Below, piece by piece: positions 1,173-58,393 of a stretch of 64,000 nt of DNA (position 1 is the stretch's first letter; every line of letters begins with the position of its first letter). The stretch is from Tricharina praecox (taxonomy: Eukaryota): positions 2,542,001-2,606,000 of the forward strand of contig NW_026250403.1 in assembly GCF_024521635.1 (NCBI RefSeq), written 5' to 3'. The notes beneath the pieces were generated by a model. That model searched no databases. It saw nothing but the letters and a program-made list of their open reading frames with translations, and was not told the DNA's origin. Position numbers and translations under genes: made by a program.

Positions 1173-4100
1173 CCTTCCCGCTAGCGTAAGTGTATTTGTT
1201 TATGGTTGCACCCGGTTCTATGCATGCAGTGCAGACGTACTCTACTCTAGATGATGGGGAGGGAGACGAGATAATGCGGCGATCCTGCGCAGTTTCGCTT
1301 CACACCACCACCACCACCTTTATTGGGCTTGACTCCCCCCTTCAATCCTCTGGGCCTGTGTGCGGGTTACTGTCCCCGGATCGAATGTACACGTGAATCG
1401 ACCGGCCGAGGGAAGGAGGGAGGGCTGTTTGACTCTGGCCGGCTAGGTAGTCGAGCTGGGATATCGTCGTGGCAATTGGCCATGCGAAACGGAAAACGGT
1501 GGCGCGATTCGACGGATAACCGCAGATTGGTGGGTGTGTGCGGCACACAATATATACGACTGTGGGTTTATACGACTGTGGGTTGCAAGTTTGGAGCAAT
1601 ACGACGCCCCGCCGGGACCTCAGCATGATGCCGATAAGTTAGTCAGTGGATGATTTGTGAATAGCCAAGATATATGCAGCAAGGCTCTGATGAAAAGATA
1701 CGTTCCATCCGTTCCGAAATCGAGGGAGGGGAGGGGGAGGGAACTGCTGTGCTATGCATGTCCATCAGGAGGTTGGTATCTGGATATTAGGGAGATGGAG
1801 GGGGAGGGGCCGCTGAGCTGGGTAGCGGGTAGTAGGGACGGCTTGAGATGATATCGCAGCGGTATATTGGGTACTGGCAAAACGTCACGGAAGACAAGGG
1901 AAGAGAGCCAACCGAATTAGCGGGAGCAAGCAGGAAGCGGAGGTTGTGTGGGTTGTGTGGGTTGTGGTTGCGAGGGGGGTTGTGAGGGTTGTGAGGATTG
2001 TGGTGAGGGGCAGCATTTCCAGAGGATTATCGATCGAGGCGTGTCGGACCCGGTAATTCCCGCACTTCATCTGGATGCACGTCAGTCACACACAGCAGTT
2101 ATTGGGAAACTGTGGGCTCCCGTTGATCCCATACCGGCTCGACGAACGAATTGCAGCTTCTGGGGTTTTATTTCTTCCAAACGAAAAGGACGTGGATGTA
2201 TCGACGTTTGGGTGGGTACGCATGCATCACAGCGGATGAATGATGGATCGACATTCAGGTACGCATGCATCGCAGTGAATCCTCACGAACTCGCAATTAA
2301 TGCCGCCTCAAGGGATGCGTACCGGAGCGGATGGTGTTTGGTCAGCGCCATGCCATTCCATGCCATGCCATTCCATGCCGTGCCATGCCAGATATCCACC
2401 GTTTGTTTGTTTGCATGCCCGTCTGACTAACTGTCTGTCTGTCTGTCTGCCTGTCCGTCCCTGGTACAACAGATGATGACGGTTCGCATATGCAGGGTCC
2501 GGTAATATATAAGCTCTATTAATGCGTATGGTGTCATCGGCGTGGAGGGCTCCCAGGAATGGGGAATATGAGCACCTTTCCGGCTATGATCGAAGGCCTC
2601 CCACCTCTCATTTCGTGGGGCGGGAGGGAGGGGGGAGGGAGGGGCGCGCTCACGAGTTACGATCCATCGATTCTGGGAAGTCTCAGAGCTAGAGTAGGCA
2701 GAGTAGAGTAAGTTACCGGAGGCTTACCATGCTAGCGTCCGAGACTATTGATCCGGCGGATCTTCTTGCATCACTACCATCCTTCCCCACCCTCAGATGT
2801 GCCGATGCCTGTATGTACAGCATGTAAGCGCTCTTCAGCAGCCCCACCTTCCTCCGCCTAAGCCATCAGCTCTTACGCCGACCAGCCGTCTTGCGCCCCA
2901 CAGCTAATCTCTGTGTTCTGCTCAAAATTGGGGAAAATGGTTACGTCCCGAAGACGTCAATTCCGGATCCCCCCTCCTCTCCCCTCCTTCTCAAAACACT
3001 CCTGCCGCAACGGGGGAGGGGAGGGGAGGGGATCACATTGCGACGGAGCATCTTACCAGGTATGTGTATGCAGCGATCGCTTCTTCCCGTCGGGCCTCGG
3101 CCTGCCTTGCTTTGCGTTATCTCTGGGAACGGGGGTGAGAGGGGGCGTGGGGGCGTGGGAGAGCGATACTACAAGCGGAGGGAAGGAGAGAAGGAGGGAA
3201 GGAGGAGAAGGACGAGTAGGAGGAGGCGCTCGTTGCCCTTTGATCCATGTTACTAACTATGGCGGTGGCCTGGGTGTCAACGGCCAGACGAGAAAACGAC
3301 AGCGTGCATATGGCGAGCGTTGACCGATTCGTGACATCACCCTCCCCTCCCCTCCCCACCTCCACCTCACCTCCACCCCACCTGGACGATGGTGGTAATC
3401 ATTGCAAGACACTCGCTGCCGCAGTGAATACCCGCCCGCCCCTTAGCATATCGCAACGAGTTCGCATCAGGACGACTGTCTCGAATCCGTGCGGTTCTTG
3501 TTTTTGGTTGCGGGGATCAATGTCTGGGAATAAACATTTACACGGCGCTAGTTTTGGGAAACGGAGTGAAGGAGGACCGGGGGGCCAAATACTGCGGCAA
3601 CGACCGTTGTAACCGCCTAAACAACGATACACACCACATCGTCCCTTCAACACAAAACACCGGCCGCAAGAAAAGCCCTCGCCGAAGGTTTGAAAGGGAC
3701 ACCGTCCGACTCCTCCGACTCCCCTTGATTGCGGTAGAACTTAGCCCGACAGGAATTACCCCCCTGGGATATACGGTGAAGATAGTCGGCCGTTTCGGAA
3801 CAGGAACCAGCGTGCTCCGGGGCCAATTATGGGCCATAAGGCTGTGTGGATAAAACGTGGGGCGAACAAGCGCAAAGTACCTATAGAGGTATATAGCGGG
3901 GTTCTTTCCATCGGTACATAACCAAGCTTCGATACCTATCAGGGGGGAAAAGGAAAAAGAAAAAGAAAAGAGACCCGGATACTCACGCCGAGAGGCCGAT
4001 AGACATATTATGCTGGTTAATGTGGTTAGTATAGACACGAGTTGGTTCGTTCACCGCTCAGCCCTGGAACCTGGCCCTGACCCTGGATCTTACCCCGGCC

Positions 4101-52675: not shown

Positions 52676-54565
52676 GCTGGCGTGGTTGGGGGTGTGCGGA
52701 GTGCGTGTAGGCGGGGGAGGCGGCGGGATTGAGGGCGGATAGAGGACGGATTGATTCGAATGGAGGGGTGTCGTCACTTCGTGCGCTAGGTTTGAGGGCG
52801 GAGGTGGAGGTGGAGATGGAGAGGGAACACGGTTTTGTGGAGGTGTGGACGATTAGAGTACTAGTTATTGCTAGACGACGCGCCACGGTGGACGTGTTAT
52901 GCTCGCGCCAAGACTAGTACTGGTACCTACAGGCGCACAATTCATCACTCGATTGGCTACCTTTCATGGACTTTTCTCGATTGCCTGCTGCTAAGGTCTA
53001 CCATTCATCCTACACCCACACACCTACTCCTCACCCCTACGTTTACGTGTATCTAGGTTCCTCTCAATCTCCGCCCAGTTCACCATCTTGGTTTTGTCAC
53101 ATGGAGTTATCACCACCATTCACTCGTCCCACGTGGTTTTGCGGCATCAGACGCTTTCAAGACAGTCTCGTGGACGTCCTTTACTTTACTGCAATGGGTA
53201 GTACCGAGAGGGGTAACCTATATGCAAGCGATCCATGGTTACAGAATCTTGGAAGTCATTCGTGCATCAGAGTGACTTTCGGTGAGGCTCCCTACCTACA
53301 TACTCTCGACGACAACGGCGGAACTTGCACTCGCGGCATTCATTAGTTACAGGCTCGGCCCTCGACGACATAGTTTCCCCTCTATATAGGAGTTGGTTTC
53401 GGGAGTGCGGTTTGTTGAAGGGATTATGCGGTTCTACGTACCTAGCTAGGTCGAGCTATGTATCTACAGCAGCTGCAATGGTTTTTCACGGCGGAGCAGA
53501 AGCTATCAGTTCCCTCGCTACCCGTGGTTGCACATCTGACGAAGCCGGCGTCCTGAATCCTAATGAACCTCAGTTTCACCTTCCGTCCAGCCTCACATCT
53601 TCCTCACCCCTCACCCCTCAGACCTCTTGATATGTAGCATTGTATGTAGCATTGGATGTAGCATGGAGAACTCTGGTGTATGTCTCGCGATGTGGTTGGC
53701 GTTCGGAGCAGTACTGCAGATACAATTGAAACCTCCCGAATGATGCAAAATCATCATGAGCCTGGTCAGCCGTCAATGAAGAATCGAGACGAACGAGAGA
53801 CTGTGACACTATGTCCCCGCTCCCCTCGGCTCCTACACACCTATGCCGTTGAGCGGGACCGCATCCATGATCCTACAGCTCGCACTTCGGAACAGCCGAG
53901 TCTGAGCCAATGCTGCTTCAGGACATGTATATAGGAAGCACTTGATCATGCCTAGCGGCTGGTTTGCTCTGTTCGACCGGTCGCCGAATCGACAGTTCAC
54001 GTCATTGAATGACGACGTTTCGCCGACCATTTGTTTGAACAGATGGAGCGACTCCGTATCAACCGACGGACTGGGTTGCGTTTGGCAGGTTACACTGGGG
54101 GCGATGTTTACAAATCTGCGGTTACAATTGAAGGAAATGAAGTCGTCATGCTTTCTCTTTTGCTTTCGATCGTCACTATTTTGTACCTTCACTTTGGCAT
54201 CAGCATTTCGTCGCTGAGAGTTTGTCGACTTCGCCGTGCGCAAATCTTGTTACAGTACGATAGGCCTCAAACGGTGGTTCACAAGAGACTGCAAGATGAG
54301 AGGAATACTAGAGCATCGATAACAAGATTGCGGCTATGGCATATTTAAGGATATAACAAATAAATTCCTCCAATATTGTTCACTTTTCAACGGTGATTGC
54401 AGAGAACCACACATCGACGAGCGATCAACATTCGAGCCTGCAGACTGAATGTTTCGCCCCTACGATCAGAGTACTGAACAGGTCCTTCGAATCTATCATT
54501 GAAAAATCCAATGTTAGCGGTCATCCCAATTGCGAGTGAAGCAAATAACGAGTAAAGAAACAGAA

Positions 54566-54654
54566 TCAGTAATCTGCCCGGTCAAGGGCGGCTTCATCAA
54601 CACCTAAAGAGGCTATGAAGACCGTCGTGAGTTTGATTGATAGATTTTCATCAT
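54566..54654 (-). ncRNA. snR73: Box C/D snoRNA, snR73-type (25S Cm2959)
   Basis: ATGATGA...TTGATGA(C')...CTGA; guide CTCACGACGGTCT versus LSU AGACCGUCGUGAG. Confidence 0.88.
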
Positions 54655-54816
54655 GGAAGGCAATGTGTAGATGCGCGGGGGTTAAAGAGAAGCATACCAC
54701 TTGGATCGTCGATACAGCATGGCACTCATTTTCATTTCATCTCTAGCCACACTTTAGACATTGTTAGCAACTGAACCACCAATGTTCGCCAGAATAAGTG
54801 ATGCAAATAACGGGTA

Positions 54817-54889
54817 TCAGTTCGTCCAGTTCTCGTCTTCGCGGTTAAGCTTGGACATATGCTTGTCATTGGTTAAGGAAGATCATCAT
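54817..54889 (-). ncRNA. snR74: Box C/D snoRNA, snR74-type (18S Am28)
   Basis: ATGATGA...CTGA; guide GACAAGCATATG versus 18S CAUAUGCUUGUC; the +5 rule from CCAA gives A28. Confidence 0.88.
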
Positions 54890-55047
54890 AAAAAGTCGAG
54901 CAGACAAAAGAATTCCACGCGCTTACCATGAGCAGCGAGTAGTGAGCGAGACGAGGTTGTTGCAAATGTTCTGGTATCTCTATTACTCCCGTTAGTAATA
55001 GACCTTCATCCTTTTTGTTTTCAAGGCAAATAATGAAACATTCAATG

Positions 55048-55130
55048 TCAGATAGGCATGAATGGTTGTAAAAAAAAGGTTATCGGCATCGGAAACCCGG
55101 ATACGACTCGTCATCTAAGGGAATCATCAT
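55048..55130 (-). ncRNA. snR75: Box C/D snoRNA, snR75-type (25S Gm2288)
   Basis: ATGATGA...CTGA; guide TTAGATGACGAG versus LSU CUCGUCAUCUAA; second element CCATTCATGC versus nearby GCAUGAAUGG; flanking stem AACATTC/GAATGTT. Confidence 0.88.
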
Positions 55131-55298
55131 AGAATGTTGGGGTCGCTAAAACAAAAAAGGTATGGGTGAGTTATACCAATTGAGCAGCTGAAGCGGGTTT
55201 CGTTCATGTCGAGTGTGATGTATGGGAGTCTGAGTCAAAATGGTCAGTTTTGTTTCGAGAAGCAGATGCAACAGTAACGTGGAGGGTACGAGTCCAGA

Positions 55299-55385
55299 TC
55301 AGTGGACAAGGTTTCTGAGGCCTCGCCGCGAAATGGTTATCATCGCTGTGGATCAGAGACCAGTGCTCTGTTTGTGTATCATCAC
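55299..55385 (-). ncRNA. snR76: Box C/D snoRNA, snR76-type (25S Cm2197)
   Basis: GTGATGA...CTGA; guide CAGAGCACTGG versus LSU CCAGUGCUCUG; internal CTGA/CGATGA D'/C'; flanking stem GAGTCC/GGACTC. Confidence 0.85.
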
Positions 55386-55581
55386 AGGACTCTATCGCGC
55401 AATTCGAAGACAAAAAACGTCGACATACCATAAACATCGATAACCGAAGCTCGAGGGAGGAATCGAAGGGTGTTATGGTGCGGATTTTGCGAGAGCAGCA
55501 TCTGAATGTCTTTGAAATGTTAGCATCAACTTCAGAAACCCAAGTGTGCATAAAAAACGAAGAGTCCAATCGGAAAAAAGA

Positions 55582-55666
55582 TCAGAATTCAGCCATTTGC
55601 TTCGTCAGTGAGCCGAAGCCCTTGGACGGTAATTTCCAGCGTATTTCTACGTCAATTGCTCATCAC
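55582..55666 (-). ncRNA. snR77: Box C/D snoRNA, snR77-type (18S Um578)
   Basis: GTGATGA...CTGA; guide GCTGGAAATTACCG versus 18S CGGUAAUUCCAGC (one bulged A); 12-bp flanking stem CCAATCGGAAAA/TTTTCCGATTGG. Confidence 0.85.
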
Positions 55667-55842
55667 AATATTTTCCGATTGGGGAGGGGTATCGAGGTGC
55701 AGTGCAATAGGAAGTGAAGAGTCTTACGTTGTAGCAAATTCATTCAGGCGTCGCGAAGGGTCGAAGCATCTGCAGGTGCTGAAAAGACCATTAGCATGAT
55801 CTCAAGAAGAAACATGGGACAGTAAAAGTAATAAAGTCAAGT

Positions 55843-55924
55843 TCAGCCTGACGTGCAAAATAGTTTCATGCCTCTTCGTAAAGAAGTCAAAGACTCTAGT
55901 TATGCGGTTTGTACAAATCATCAT
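55843..55924 (-). ncRNA. snR78: Box C/D snoRNA with two guides: snR78-type (25S Um2421) and snR72-type (25S Am876)
   Basis: C box ATGATGA; AACTAGAGTC-T-TTGA(D') complementary to LSU GACUCUAGUU; TTTGCACGTCAG-G-CTGA(D) complementary to LSU CUGACGUGCAAA. The +5 rule gives U and A respectively. Confidence 0.85.
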
Positions 55925-56128
55925 ATAAGGAGGGGAAGGTTGCGATGGTGTTGGGGTAGACAAACCGATTGAGCACTGAAGACTGGCAGCCATGGTATGG
56001 TGATGTGGGTCGGGGTGGAGAGGAGATGTTGCGGTGTCGTGATGTTGAGTGAAAGTGGTTATGATGTGGTTGGTGGGATGAGGGAGGAGGTGGAGTTTGG
56101 GAGAAAAATCTCACTTTAAACAGAGGCG

Positions 56129-56218
56129 GCGAAAATTGGTGTGTGGAATTTTTGCCGGTCGCACCAACTAATCAGCAGCGGTGAAAAAATACAGCGGTCT
56201 TGGCGGCAGAGTGATGAG
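56129..56218. promoter_or_regulatory. RRPE-like and PAC-like ribosome-biogenesis motifs upstream of the snoRNA host
   Basis: GCGAAAATT (56129-56137), TGAAAAAAT (56182-56190) and GATGAG (56213-56218). Confidence 0.4.
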
Positions 56219-56643
56219 ATATGACGACCTGACGGATTAAACGCCGAAATCGCCAGTTGGAAAAGAGTATTGCCTCCATTTTAAAGTTTTTTGTTATAGG
56301 AGAGCTCTTCTATAATCGACAAGTAGGAATTCGTAAAGCTATTTTTTACTTTCATGCCGTACCATCGCTATCGGCCTCCGAATTCTGGAGTTTTGGTGGG
56401 CTTTCGGTTCTCTAGAGGATGGATGTTGCTCGGCTTTTTAGAAGAGCCGCAGCTGTAGGATGGTACAAACTGCAGATCATAGTGGCAGTGATCATTATTA
56501 TCACGAGTATCTACATATTTCAACCTATCTTGAAAATGACGGGTCCAATCGTGCGGTATCAAGTTGACTGGTCTCCTATCATACATGCCAAACTCGAGCA
56601 CTAAGGAAGTTATTCCCCATATATAGCCAGGTCTCGAACTGAT

Positions 56644-57493
56644 CTAAGCACTGCCATAACGTTTGGCAGCCGTCTTCCAGTTGATGACATCCCACACGGC
56701 ACCGAAGTACTCCGCCTTGCGGTTCTCGTACTGGAGGTAGTAGGCGTGCTCCCAAGCATCAATACCTATGATTGGCTGGTACTTGCCGACAACAGGGTCC
56801 TGGTTCTATATGCAACACAACCACATCAGCACCGTTGAATCCAAGAGCTATGTAGGACTAGGGGTTACGGACCGGCAAAGAGATAATCTGGAGCTTGTTG
56901 GTTTCCTTGTCCTTCACGAGCCAAGTCCAACCGCTACCCTGAATTCCAGCAAGGTAGGTGTTGAAGGTCTTCTTGAAGTTGTCAAAGTTACCCCAGTTCT
57001 CGTTGATGGCGGTTGCAAGCTCGCCAGTTGGCGGGTCTCCTCCGCCGTTCTTCTTGGGTGCAAGGTTCTCCCAGAAGAGAGTGTGGTTGATATGTCCTCT
57101 TTTCGACGAGGAGTCAGCGACCACACTGATTCAAGGCTTGAAACGAGTTTCCTACCCTCCGTGGAACTTCAGCAGAGCCTGAAGGTTGATCTGGGCCTGC
57201 ACGTTGTTGTCCTTAGCTGCAACGGAGTACTTCTCCTCGGCCTCATTAAGCATGTTGACATAGGTTTGGTGGTGCTTGGTATGATGAAGCTACTCTAATC
57301 AGCACCATCGACACCGAAGATTGTTCCGATGAAGACGAACCTCCATGATCTTTCCTGAGATGGAAGGCTCAAGCTCGGCGTAATCATAGGGCAGGTCGGG
57401 AAGGGTGTGCTTCTGGCGCGCGGCGGCGTTGATGAAGCCGCGGGCGGAGACAGCCCGGATGGTTGGGCGGACAACTCTGGAGGCGAGGGACAT
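56644..57493 (-). CDS. SOD2: Mitochondrial Mn superoxide dismutase, 4 exons
   Basis: Presequence followed by [44 protein letters not shown] and [13 protein letters not shown]. Confidence 0.96.
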
Positions 57494-58393
57494 GATTTAA
57501 GGGTGTTGATGAAGCAAACGTTTGAAGATGATTGTATGGGGTCGACGTCATTCACAGCTTTTGTGCACCCCCGCTTAGTAAATGCACGCGTTGCCCAGGG
57601 TCCCGCTTCGATGATTACATACGGCGCCCTTTTTAGTACTTTCTGTCGCTGGGAAGCTGATCAGCAATTCAGCATGCATACCTACTCAGTTCAGGACGGA
57701 AGGCCTACTCATATCCCTTGGTCCGGCAATCTTCTGTGCAGACCCCACGACAGTCAACGGCTTTCTCTATGAGCCGAACAAATCTTTATTGAACCTGCTC
57801 CCGTTAGGTAGGCCCACATTCGCTGGTGCACTGCCCTACAGATAATCAACACCAACGTTTATTGCCATTGAGTTGGCTCGAGGACTGCCGGGAGGAAAGG
57901 ACAAGAAGGCGGGATGATTGTGTACATGGAAGGGGGCGGAACAGTGTGTGCTATGTCTCTTGCCTTTTCCGTTTACAGATGGAATGACTCTATCGATGTT
58001 TCTGTACAAGTGGCCTGTCTTTTCACCTGTCACTCGGGGTCCTTCGCGCACGTATAAATCTCCGCGATAACTTCACAGAAGGGGTAGGGTGGGGAGTCGC
58101 CATAGTCTAGACAGGCCCCGCATGCGACAATAGAATGATGTTCTCTCTCTCTCTTCACAAAAAAGCTGGAGCTTTGGGGGGAAAGCCATGGTTAAGGCTA
58201 CCACTTCGTTACATGTAGCAGGTAGATTGAATAAGCTGAATGCTGTCGTTCACAGCATCGATCGTAATGGAGTTGCGCTTCTTTCGCTCCATAGCTTTGC
58301 ACCTATCTGATGCTTGGTTGAGTTAGCTTCTCGGTACTGATTCTCCGGCTGTCATGCGTAAACGTGCGTCCTGAGCACGCCGCACTAAAACCC

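Follow-up and report, generated by a model that had tools for sequence, protein, structure and literature searches.

A spliced host gene for six intronic box C/D snoRNAs in Tricharina praecox, an orthologue of fungal snoRNA cluster I

The window considered here is a stretch of 64,000 nucleotides from the genome of Tricharina praecox (contig NW_026250403.1). On its minus strand, between an Fe/Mn superoxide dismutase (SOD) gene lying upstream in the same orientation and a DNAJC9-like gene lying downstream, an apparently empty stretch is occupied over about 1.7 kb by a host gene with six GT...AG introns of 175-218 nt, each provided with a branch-point motif (Table 1). About 1.5 kb of unassigned DNA separates the host from the DNAJC9-like gene. 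The first-pass annotation, made from the letters of the window, had confined the locus to 54493..55993; the gene extends past both ends, from about 56066-56069 down to at least 54332. The contigs described below fix neither end and reveal no transcription start site for host exon 1. Once joined, the exons measure about 557 nt. Upstream of exon 1, blocks kept in an alignment with two close relatives probably represent the promoter; neither a TATA nor an RRPE match was found in the 350 nt upstream of the host. No tRNA gene was found in the window, and none of the four long unspliced frames that overlap or adjoin the locus has a Pfam match.

Table 1. Features of the snoRNA host locus, in positions of the window. 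Targets are computed pairings with the rRNA of the same genome, in its own numbering; counterparts in Neurospora crassa are those given in PMC2780460.
Feature	Positions	Strand	Description	Predicted target	N. crassa counterpart
Probable promoter	56102..56197	-	blocks kept in two close relatives; putative function
Host exon 1	55966..56069	-	about 104 nt, 5' end approximate; X2 covers 55966-56066, X1 contig of length 558 implies about 56069
First ORF	55744..55993	-	20 codons, interrupted by intron 1 and ending in exon 2
Intron 1	55779..55965	-	187 nt, 5' site GTTTGT; joint in X1 and X2
snoRNA 1, snR78/snR72 double guide	55843..55924	-	D' guide 55901-55892; D guide 55859-55847	LSU U2398 (D'); LSU A873 (D)	CD5, Um2383 and Am856
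Host exon 2	55728..55778	-	51 nt; X1 and X2 contigs
Intron 2	55510..55727	-	218 nt; joint in X1 and X2
Stem of intron 2	55682-55671 / 55577-55566	-	12 bp, pairs around and closes snoRNA 2
snoRNA 2, snR77 orthologue	55582..55666	-	Afu_300, 66.5 bits; one unpaired A in D' guide	SSU U574 (D')	CD24, Um575
Host exon 3	55429..55509	-	81 nt; X1 and X2 contigs
Intron 3	55230..55428	-	199 nt, 6-bp stem; joint in X1 and X2
snoRNA 3, snR76 orthologue	55299..55385	-	Afu_513, 34.1 bits (cut-off 48), and SNORD88, 22.5 bits, both under cut-off; U opposite C at +3 of D' guide	LSU C2174 (D')	CD12, Cm2159
Host exon 4	55177..55229	-	53 nt; X1 and X2 contigs
Intron 4	54980..55176	-	197 nt, 7-bp stem; joint in X1 and X2
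snoRNA 4, snR75	55048..55130	-	Rfam snR75, 80.1 bits	LSU G2265 (D')	Gm2250 (Table 1 of that paper)
Host exon 5	54927..54979	-	53 nt; X1 and X2 contigs
Intron 5	54752..54926	-	175 nt; joint in X1 and X2
snoRNA 5, snR74/U27 orthologue	54817..54889	-	SNORD27, 24.9 bits, under cut-off	SSU A28 (D')	CD21, Am28
Host exon 6	54698..54751	-	54 nt; X1 and X2 contigs
Intron 6	54493..54697	-	205 nt; joint in X1 and X2
snoRNA 6, snR73/U35 orthologue	54566..54654	-	snoZ161_228, 28.1 bits, under cut-off	LSU C2934 (D')	CD31, Cm2917
Host exon 7 (last)	54332..54492	-	at least 161 nt, 3' end undefined; X1 reaches 54332, X2 54371

Splice joints were sought in four public runs. In two of them (X1 and X2), all six host joints are present at the predicted bases within one contig each, and in the two pieces of host exon given for each run the letters are those of the window; X3 and X4 do not cover the host and provide no evidence either way. 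Both X1 and X2 are contig runs whose classification as RNA is only a guess in the records, no run recorded as RNA being listed for this locus. As their contigs also skip three introns of the SOD gene, we take these runs to show spliced RNA. The six minus-strand introns proposed by the first-pass annotation, with spliced reads named as their check, are thus observed, and so is the splicing on which its picture of a non-coding host with intronic snoRNAs depended. The SOD introns measure 67, 57 and 51 nt, which agrees, in this small sample of three, with the earlier claim that host introns are three to four times the usual size. One low-depth X1 contig (55545-55736) keeps part of intron 2. Missing intron cover in X1 and X2 was not counted as evidence on snoRNA levels.

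Each intron holds one C...D unit, as had been claimed: a single RTGATGA C box located 37-61 nt past the 5' splice site and a CTGA D box located 64-73 nt ahead of the 3' splice site, so that terminal boxes C and D are present in all six units. The frequency of this motif in the rest of the window would predict 0.27 C boxes in 1.3 kb, whereas six are present (P ~4e-7). The D' boxes are degenerate or assigned by position in five of the six units; degenerate D' boxes are tolerated in yeast, according to the part of PMC3116282 available to us. An Rfam scan, which the earlier reading had suggested, was productive in part: snoRNAs 2 and 4 score above the cut-off (40 bits for Afu_300) and snoRNAs 3, 5 and 6 give weak cognate matches below it, whereas snoRNA 1 has no Rfam match, at or below cut-off. 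Flanking stems, announced for three introns, close the snoRNAs of introns 2, 3 and 4, with 12, 6 and 7 bp (shuffle p of 0.0005, 0.057 and 0.023, respectively); no flanking stem was found in introns 1, 5 and 6. These stems are largely kept in relatives, with a few breaks at stem ends, and that of intron 2 shows one two-sided change.

We computed pairings against the rRNA of the same genome, taking as target the rRNA base that lies opposite the fifth guide nucleotide ahead of the D or D' box. Seven guides of at least 10 nt beside D or D' boxes land on known sites, one of them with an unpaired A and another with a mismatch at +3. Relative to the N. crassa sites, computed targets are displaced consistently, by 15-17 nt in the LSU and 0-1 nt in the SSU, and LSU targets lie 133 and 91 nt apart, as do yeast positions 2421, 2288 and 2197. 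The identities and order snR78-77-76-75-74-73 read from the sequence are therefore upheld, each guide falling on its cognate site. The first unit had been described as a single guide: its snR78 element stands, but a second guide, beside its D box, points to the snR72 site, so that the seventh yeast snoRNA is fused into the first. The six RNAs are thereby predicted to cover all seven yeast targets.

Antisense elements of 10-13 nt, as proposed earlier, are found in most units; the exception is the snR77-like guide, which forms 13 bp with one unpaired A and has a best perfect run of 8 nt. Perfect antisense pairing extends over at most 12, 8, 11, 12, 12 and 13 nt in snoRNAs 1 to 6, lengths reached by 17, 995, 73, 30, 13 and 7 of 1000 shuffles, respectively. 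Run lengths for snoRNAs 2 and 3 are within chance, so that these two assignments rest on Rfam, position and conservation. Among the matches listed, the unpaired A of the snR77-like guide is common to 63 of 79 loci, and the U that replaces G at +3 of the snR76 guide, accompanied by a longer 5' pairing, occurs in 6 of 46. A possible second guide in snoRNA 3, a 10-nt match to SSU 1761-1770, differs in most of the 46 listed snR76-like units and was attributed to chance. In snoRNA 4, we computed an additional 10-nt pairing to LSU 2284-2293; an extra-pairing region of yeast snR75 is reported to promote methylation (PMC3116282).

The cluster is present in a single copy in the genome, save for one decayed snR73-like piece on contig C83. 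A guide-pattern scan of the genome found no separate snR72-like gene. Its sole other match (C62) has no C box within 120 nt upstream and was rejected; a control pattern also matched the genome once. Outside this genome, the double-guide pattern is found in at least 117 metagenome stretches, of which 91 among the matches listed are distinct besides the window. This pattern selects for the snR78/72 fusion and thus gives no estimate of fusion frequency. Because automatic intron prediction skipped variant C boxes (17 of 36 loci complete), order was counted from guides only, the motif for snR76 having just 7 letters. Among the matches listed, all five further guides follow in order in 32 of the 39 loci with at least 1650 nt downstream, and none of these 39 has a separate snR72 unit downstream.

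L070 and L038 (partial) are the closest loci among the matches listed. Compared with the window, their snoRNAs are 93-99% identical, exon stretches 55-89% and intron flanks 65-88%. The spacing from D box to 3' splice site is similar in most relatives. The neighbouring SOD gene is found at one other locus, L070, among the 41 listed loci with at least 1.5 kb upstream. An ATG right before the 5' splice site occurs at 36 of 155 cluster sites versus 3 of 21 control sites, a difference that is not significant, the loci being related.

We interpret this locus as the Pezizomycotina form of fungal snoRNA cluster I, that is, one transcript with six spliced introns carrying one snoRNA each, and assign this reading a probability of about 0.95. 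A single transcript would be spliced at its six introns, the splicing itself being observed, and the excised introns would then be debranched and trimmed by exonucleases into box C/D snoRNAs of 73-89 nt, as suggested both by what is established for other intronic snoRNAs and by the distance of 64-73 nt that separates D box and 3' splice site. The snoRNAs would join proteins that we take to be Nop1, Nop56, Nop58 and Snu13 in snoRNPs. To judge from the computed pairings, these would direct 2'-O-methylation at LSU A873, C2174, G2265, U2398 and C2934 and at SSU A28 and U574, the first RNA standing in for yeast snR78 as well as snR72. The ligated exons would remain as a by-product without a constrained protein.

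We may also consider that the snoRNAs are freed mainly without splicing, RNase III cutting a polycistronic precursor by way of the stems in the manner of S. cerevisiae, whose cluster is processed by Rnt1 (PMC5033589). The stems of three introns, the two-sided change in the 12-bp one and the X1 contig that retains part of intron 2 would fit such a route. However, all six introns are spliced, and the stems enclose individual snoRNAs rather than separating neighbouring units, measure only 6-12 bp and are absent from three units; the tight spacing between D box and 3' splice site, similar in most relatives, also speaks for release from spliced introns. We therefore regard release by RNase III as very unlikely.

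The spliced host contains 15 ATG-started frames. The first-pass annotation had the exons encode only one short peptide, with its stop in exon 2. The first ORF does have 20 codons and ends there, but it is one frame among these fifteen, the longest of which has 40 codons. Its ATG lies in a good context (A at -3, G at +4), and its stop is located 257 nt ahead of the last junction, with five junctions downstream. L070 and L038 keep its start, its stop and its 63-nt length with no indel, and its identity among the three sequences (75-89%) exceeds that of other exon stretches (55-78%). Such features might suggest that the host is bifunctional and also encodes a functional micropeptide of 20 residues. 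Yet intron flanks are conserved about equally, differences are spread over all codon positions, and pN/pS values of 0.48, 0.94 and 1.09 in the three pairwise comparisons, which have low power with 19 codons and 3 sequences, show no sign of purifying selection on the peptide in this little data. More distant hosts have different short ORFs, or none near exon 1: among the matches listed, 57 of 74 loci have an ATG no more than 80 nt from the first splice site, against 64 of 74 for the control triplet CAT. In six cleanly predicted hosts (the window and two near-duplicates included), first ORFs range from 10 to 27 codons and end in exon 1 or 2. A functional micropeptide thus appears most improbable.

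Returning to a host without constrained protein, the position of the first stop raises the question of nonsense-mediated decay (NMD). NMD of the host is plausible by analogy with N. crassa, where a stop codon followed by introns can set off this pathway (Zhang and Sachs 2015, as cited in PMC7746235). NMD of human snoRNA hosts has also been reported, to judge from a reference title in PMC11028025, and we found no NMD test on a fungal cluster I host in the open-licence literature. We lean towards the view that the host is translated over its 20-codon ORF and then turned over by NMD. The ease with which both runs yield assembled spliced host indicates that any such decay would be incomplete. The start codon, stop codon and reading frame persist in three related genomes as the amino acids drift, and one may speculate that the ORF is kept for its position, not for its peptide, its translation committing the carrier to NMD and thereby linking host turnover to translation. 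We consider this rather unlikely; it might perhaps extend to the balance of splice forms.

A last reading, which the four units below the Rfam cut-off might have suggested, takes the introns and boxes for a fortuitous arrangement of intergenic sequence or for a dead copy. It is refuted by the exact spliced joints and by a 93-99% conservation confined to the snoRNAs, and the genome has a single full copy.

Known clusters provide close parallels. In the sections of PMC2780460 available to us, cluster I of N. crassa likewise comprises six intronic snoRNAs (CD5, CD24, CD12, CD7, CD21 and CD31) with the seven same targets, CD5 being a double guide. Its host, too, has short ORFs and was seen to be spliced, and the N. 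crassa hosts, studied by RT-PCR, are likened there to UHG and gas5. Some details differ. ORFs of 159-267 bp are given for the hosts of N. crassa clusters I-V, whereas the frames of the window host reach at most 40 codons; exon-skipped forms were found in N. crassa and none is listed for the window host; and CD24 is listed as 13/0, whereas the snR77 guide of the window has an unpaired A and its snR76 guide a mismatch at +3. The vertebrate UHG and GAS5 genes, compared in PMC2780460, also carry one snoRNA per intron between exons with only short ORFs, although the hosts are not homologous.

In Euascomycetes and Pezizomycotina, cluster I is described with the order 78/72-77-76-75-74-73, all units being intronic, within about 1.5 kb (PMC3596301; clan CD_5 in PMC5824354). 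The double guide is placed at the root of Pezizomycotina (PMC5824354). Exons are there poorly conserved and flanking genes not conserved, and we see no structural difference from the window in the portions of these accounts available to us. The locus has snR77-76-75-74-73 in 5' to 3' order in about 1.5 kb behind a double-guide first member, in spliced introns, with poorly conserved exons (55-89%) and no long ORF. The locus thus shows all the testable traits that define cluster I, and it is an orthologue of this well-described cluster.

The snR78-snR72 polycistron of S. cerevisiae (PMC5033589, which also covers the Candida and yeast forms, and PMC3116282) shares the guides, their order and the snR75 extra-pairing element. 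It consists, however, of seven RNAs with a separate snR72 at its 3' end, has no introns and is processed by Rnt1, whereas the window has six RNAs, all in spliced introns, and so departs from the unspliced polycistronic type. The likeness in guides and order that the first-pass annotation had noted with this yeast is real, but the intronic form it presented as a contrast is the norm in filamentous ascomycetes (PMC2780460, PMC3596301).

The layout of this locus is already published for Neurospora and Pezizomycotina, in what is available to us of PMC2780460, PMC3596301 and PMC5824354, and the cluster opens no new mechanism. It provides one more example, backed by spliced RNA, of a cluster that already serves in work on fungal intron loss and guide fusion. 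It also illustrates how protein-centred annotation, and even Rfam at cut-off (two of the six snoRNAs), would miss most of a gene that guides seven methylations.

The first 5' splice site of the non-coding host reads GTTTGT (55965-55960, minus strand), a non-consensus site that is nevertheless used, as shown by the spliced joint in run contigs; it is also present in the two closest metagenome relatives, L070 and L038. In run X1, a low-depth contig (55545-55736) still carries the upstream portion of intron 2, including the snoRNA. No other contig among the matches listed contains intron sequence of the host; this one could be pre-mRNA or a processing intermediate. Two upstream blocks are also kept in L070 and L038 and are likely promoter elements. 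At 56218 lies a PAC-like word.

Among the metagenome loci, the clusters of L020, L026, L033 and L049 are expanded, with ~500-900 nt separating some of their units, and a zero-length exon is predicted between the snR77 and snR76 introns of L007 and L060, resembling the complex introns of PMC3596301. Exons ending in ATG at cluster 5' splice sites (36/155 in metagenome loci among the matches listed, versus 3/21 in a small control) show no significant excess.

Features of the window and of contigs C72 and C83 of the same genome, G000
Feature	Location	Strand	Remark
snoRNA 3 guide, U facing rRNA C at +3	window 55359-55357	-	computed pairing
snoRNA 2 guide, extra A versus SSU target	window 55641-55627	-	computed pairing
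Conserved upstream blocks	window 56197-56150 and 56120-56102	-	kept in L070 and L038
SOD gene	window 56640-57500	-	neighbour of host
SOD paralogue	G000:C72:1038555-1038797		90% amino-acid identity to window SOD over one exon
Decayed snR73-like unit	G000:C83:280589-280674 (L124 about 3089-3174)	-	80% identity to snR73-like unit

Runs X1 and X2 show a second SOD transcript with unchanged intron positions, whose source is probably the C72 paralogue.

The snR73-like copy on C83 has an altered C box, a changed terminal D box region and a mismatch within the guide; it has no Rfam match, and similarity in the flanks is only weak. It is probably a snoRNA pseudogene. Such remnants tend not to persist in fungi, according to a review (PMC11028025).

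Two guides pair irregularly. The extra A of snoRNA 2 (snR77) recurs in 63 of the 79 loci among the matches listed, so the bulged duplex is old. In snoRNA 3 (snR76), the U/C at +3 is accompanied by longer pairing on the 5' side, and occurs in 6/46 snR76-like units among the matches listed (the window, L038, L070, L005, L031 and L040); this pairing may make methylation at LSU C2174 weaker or retune it.
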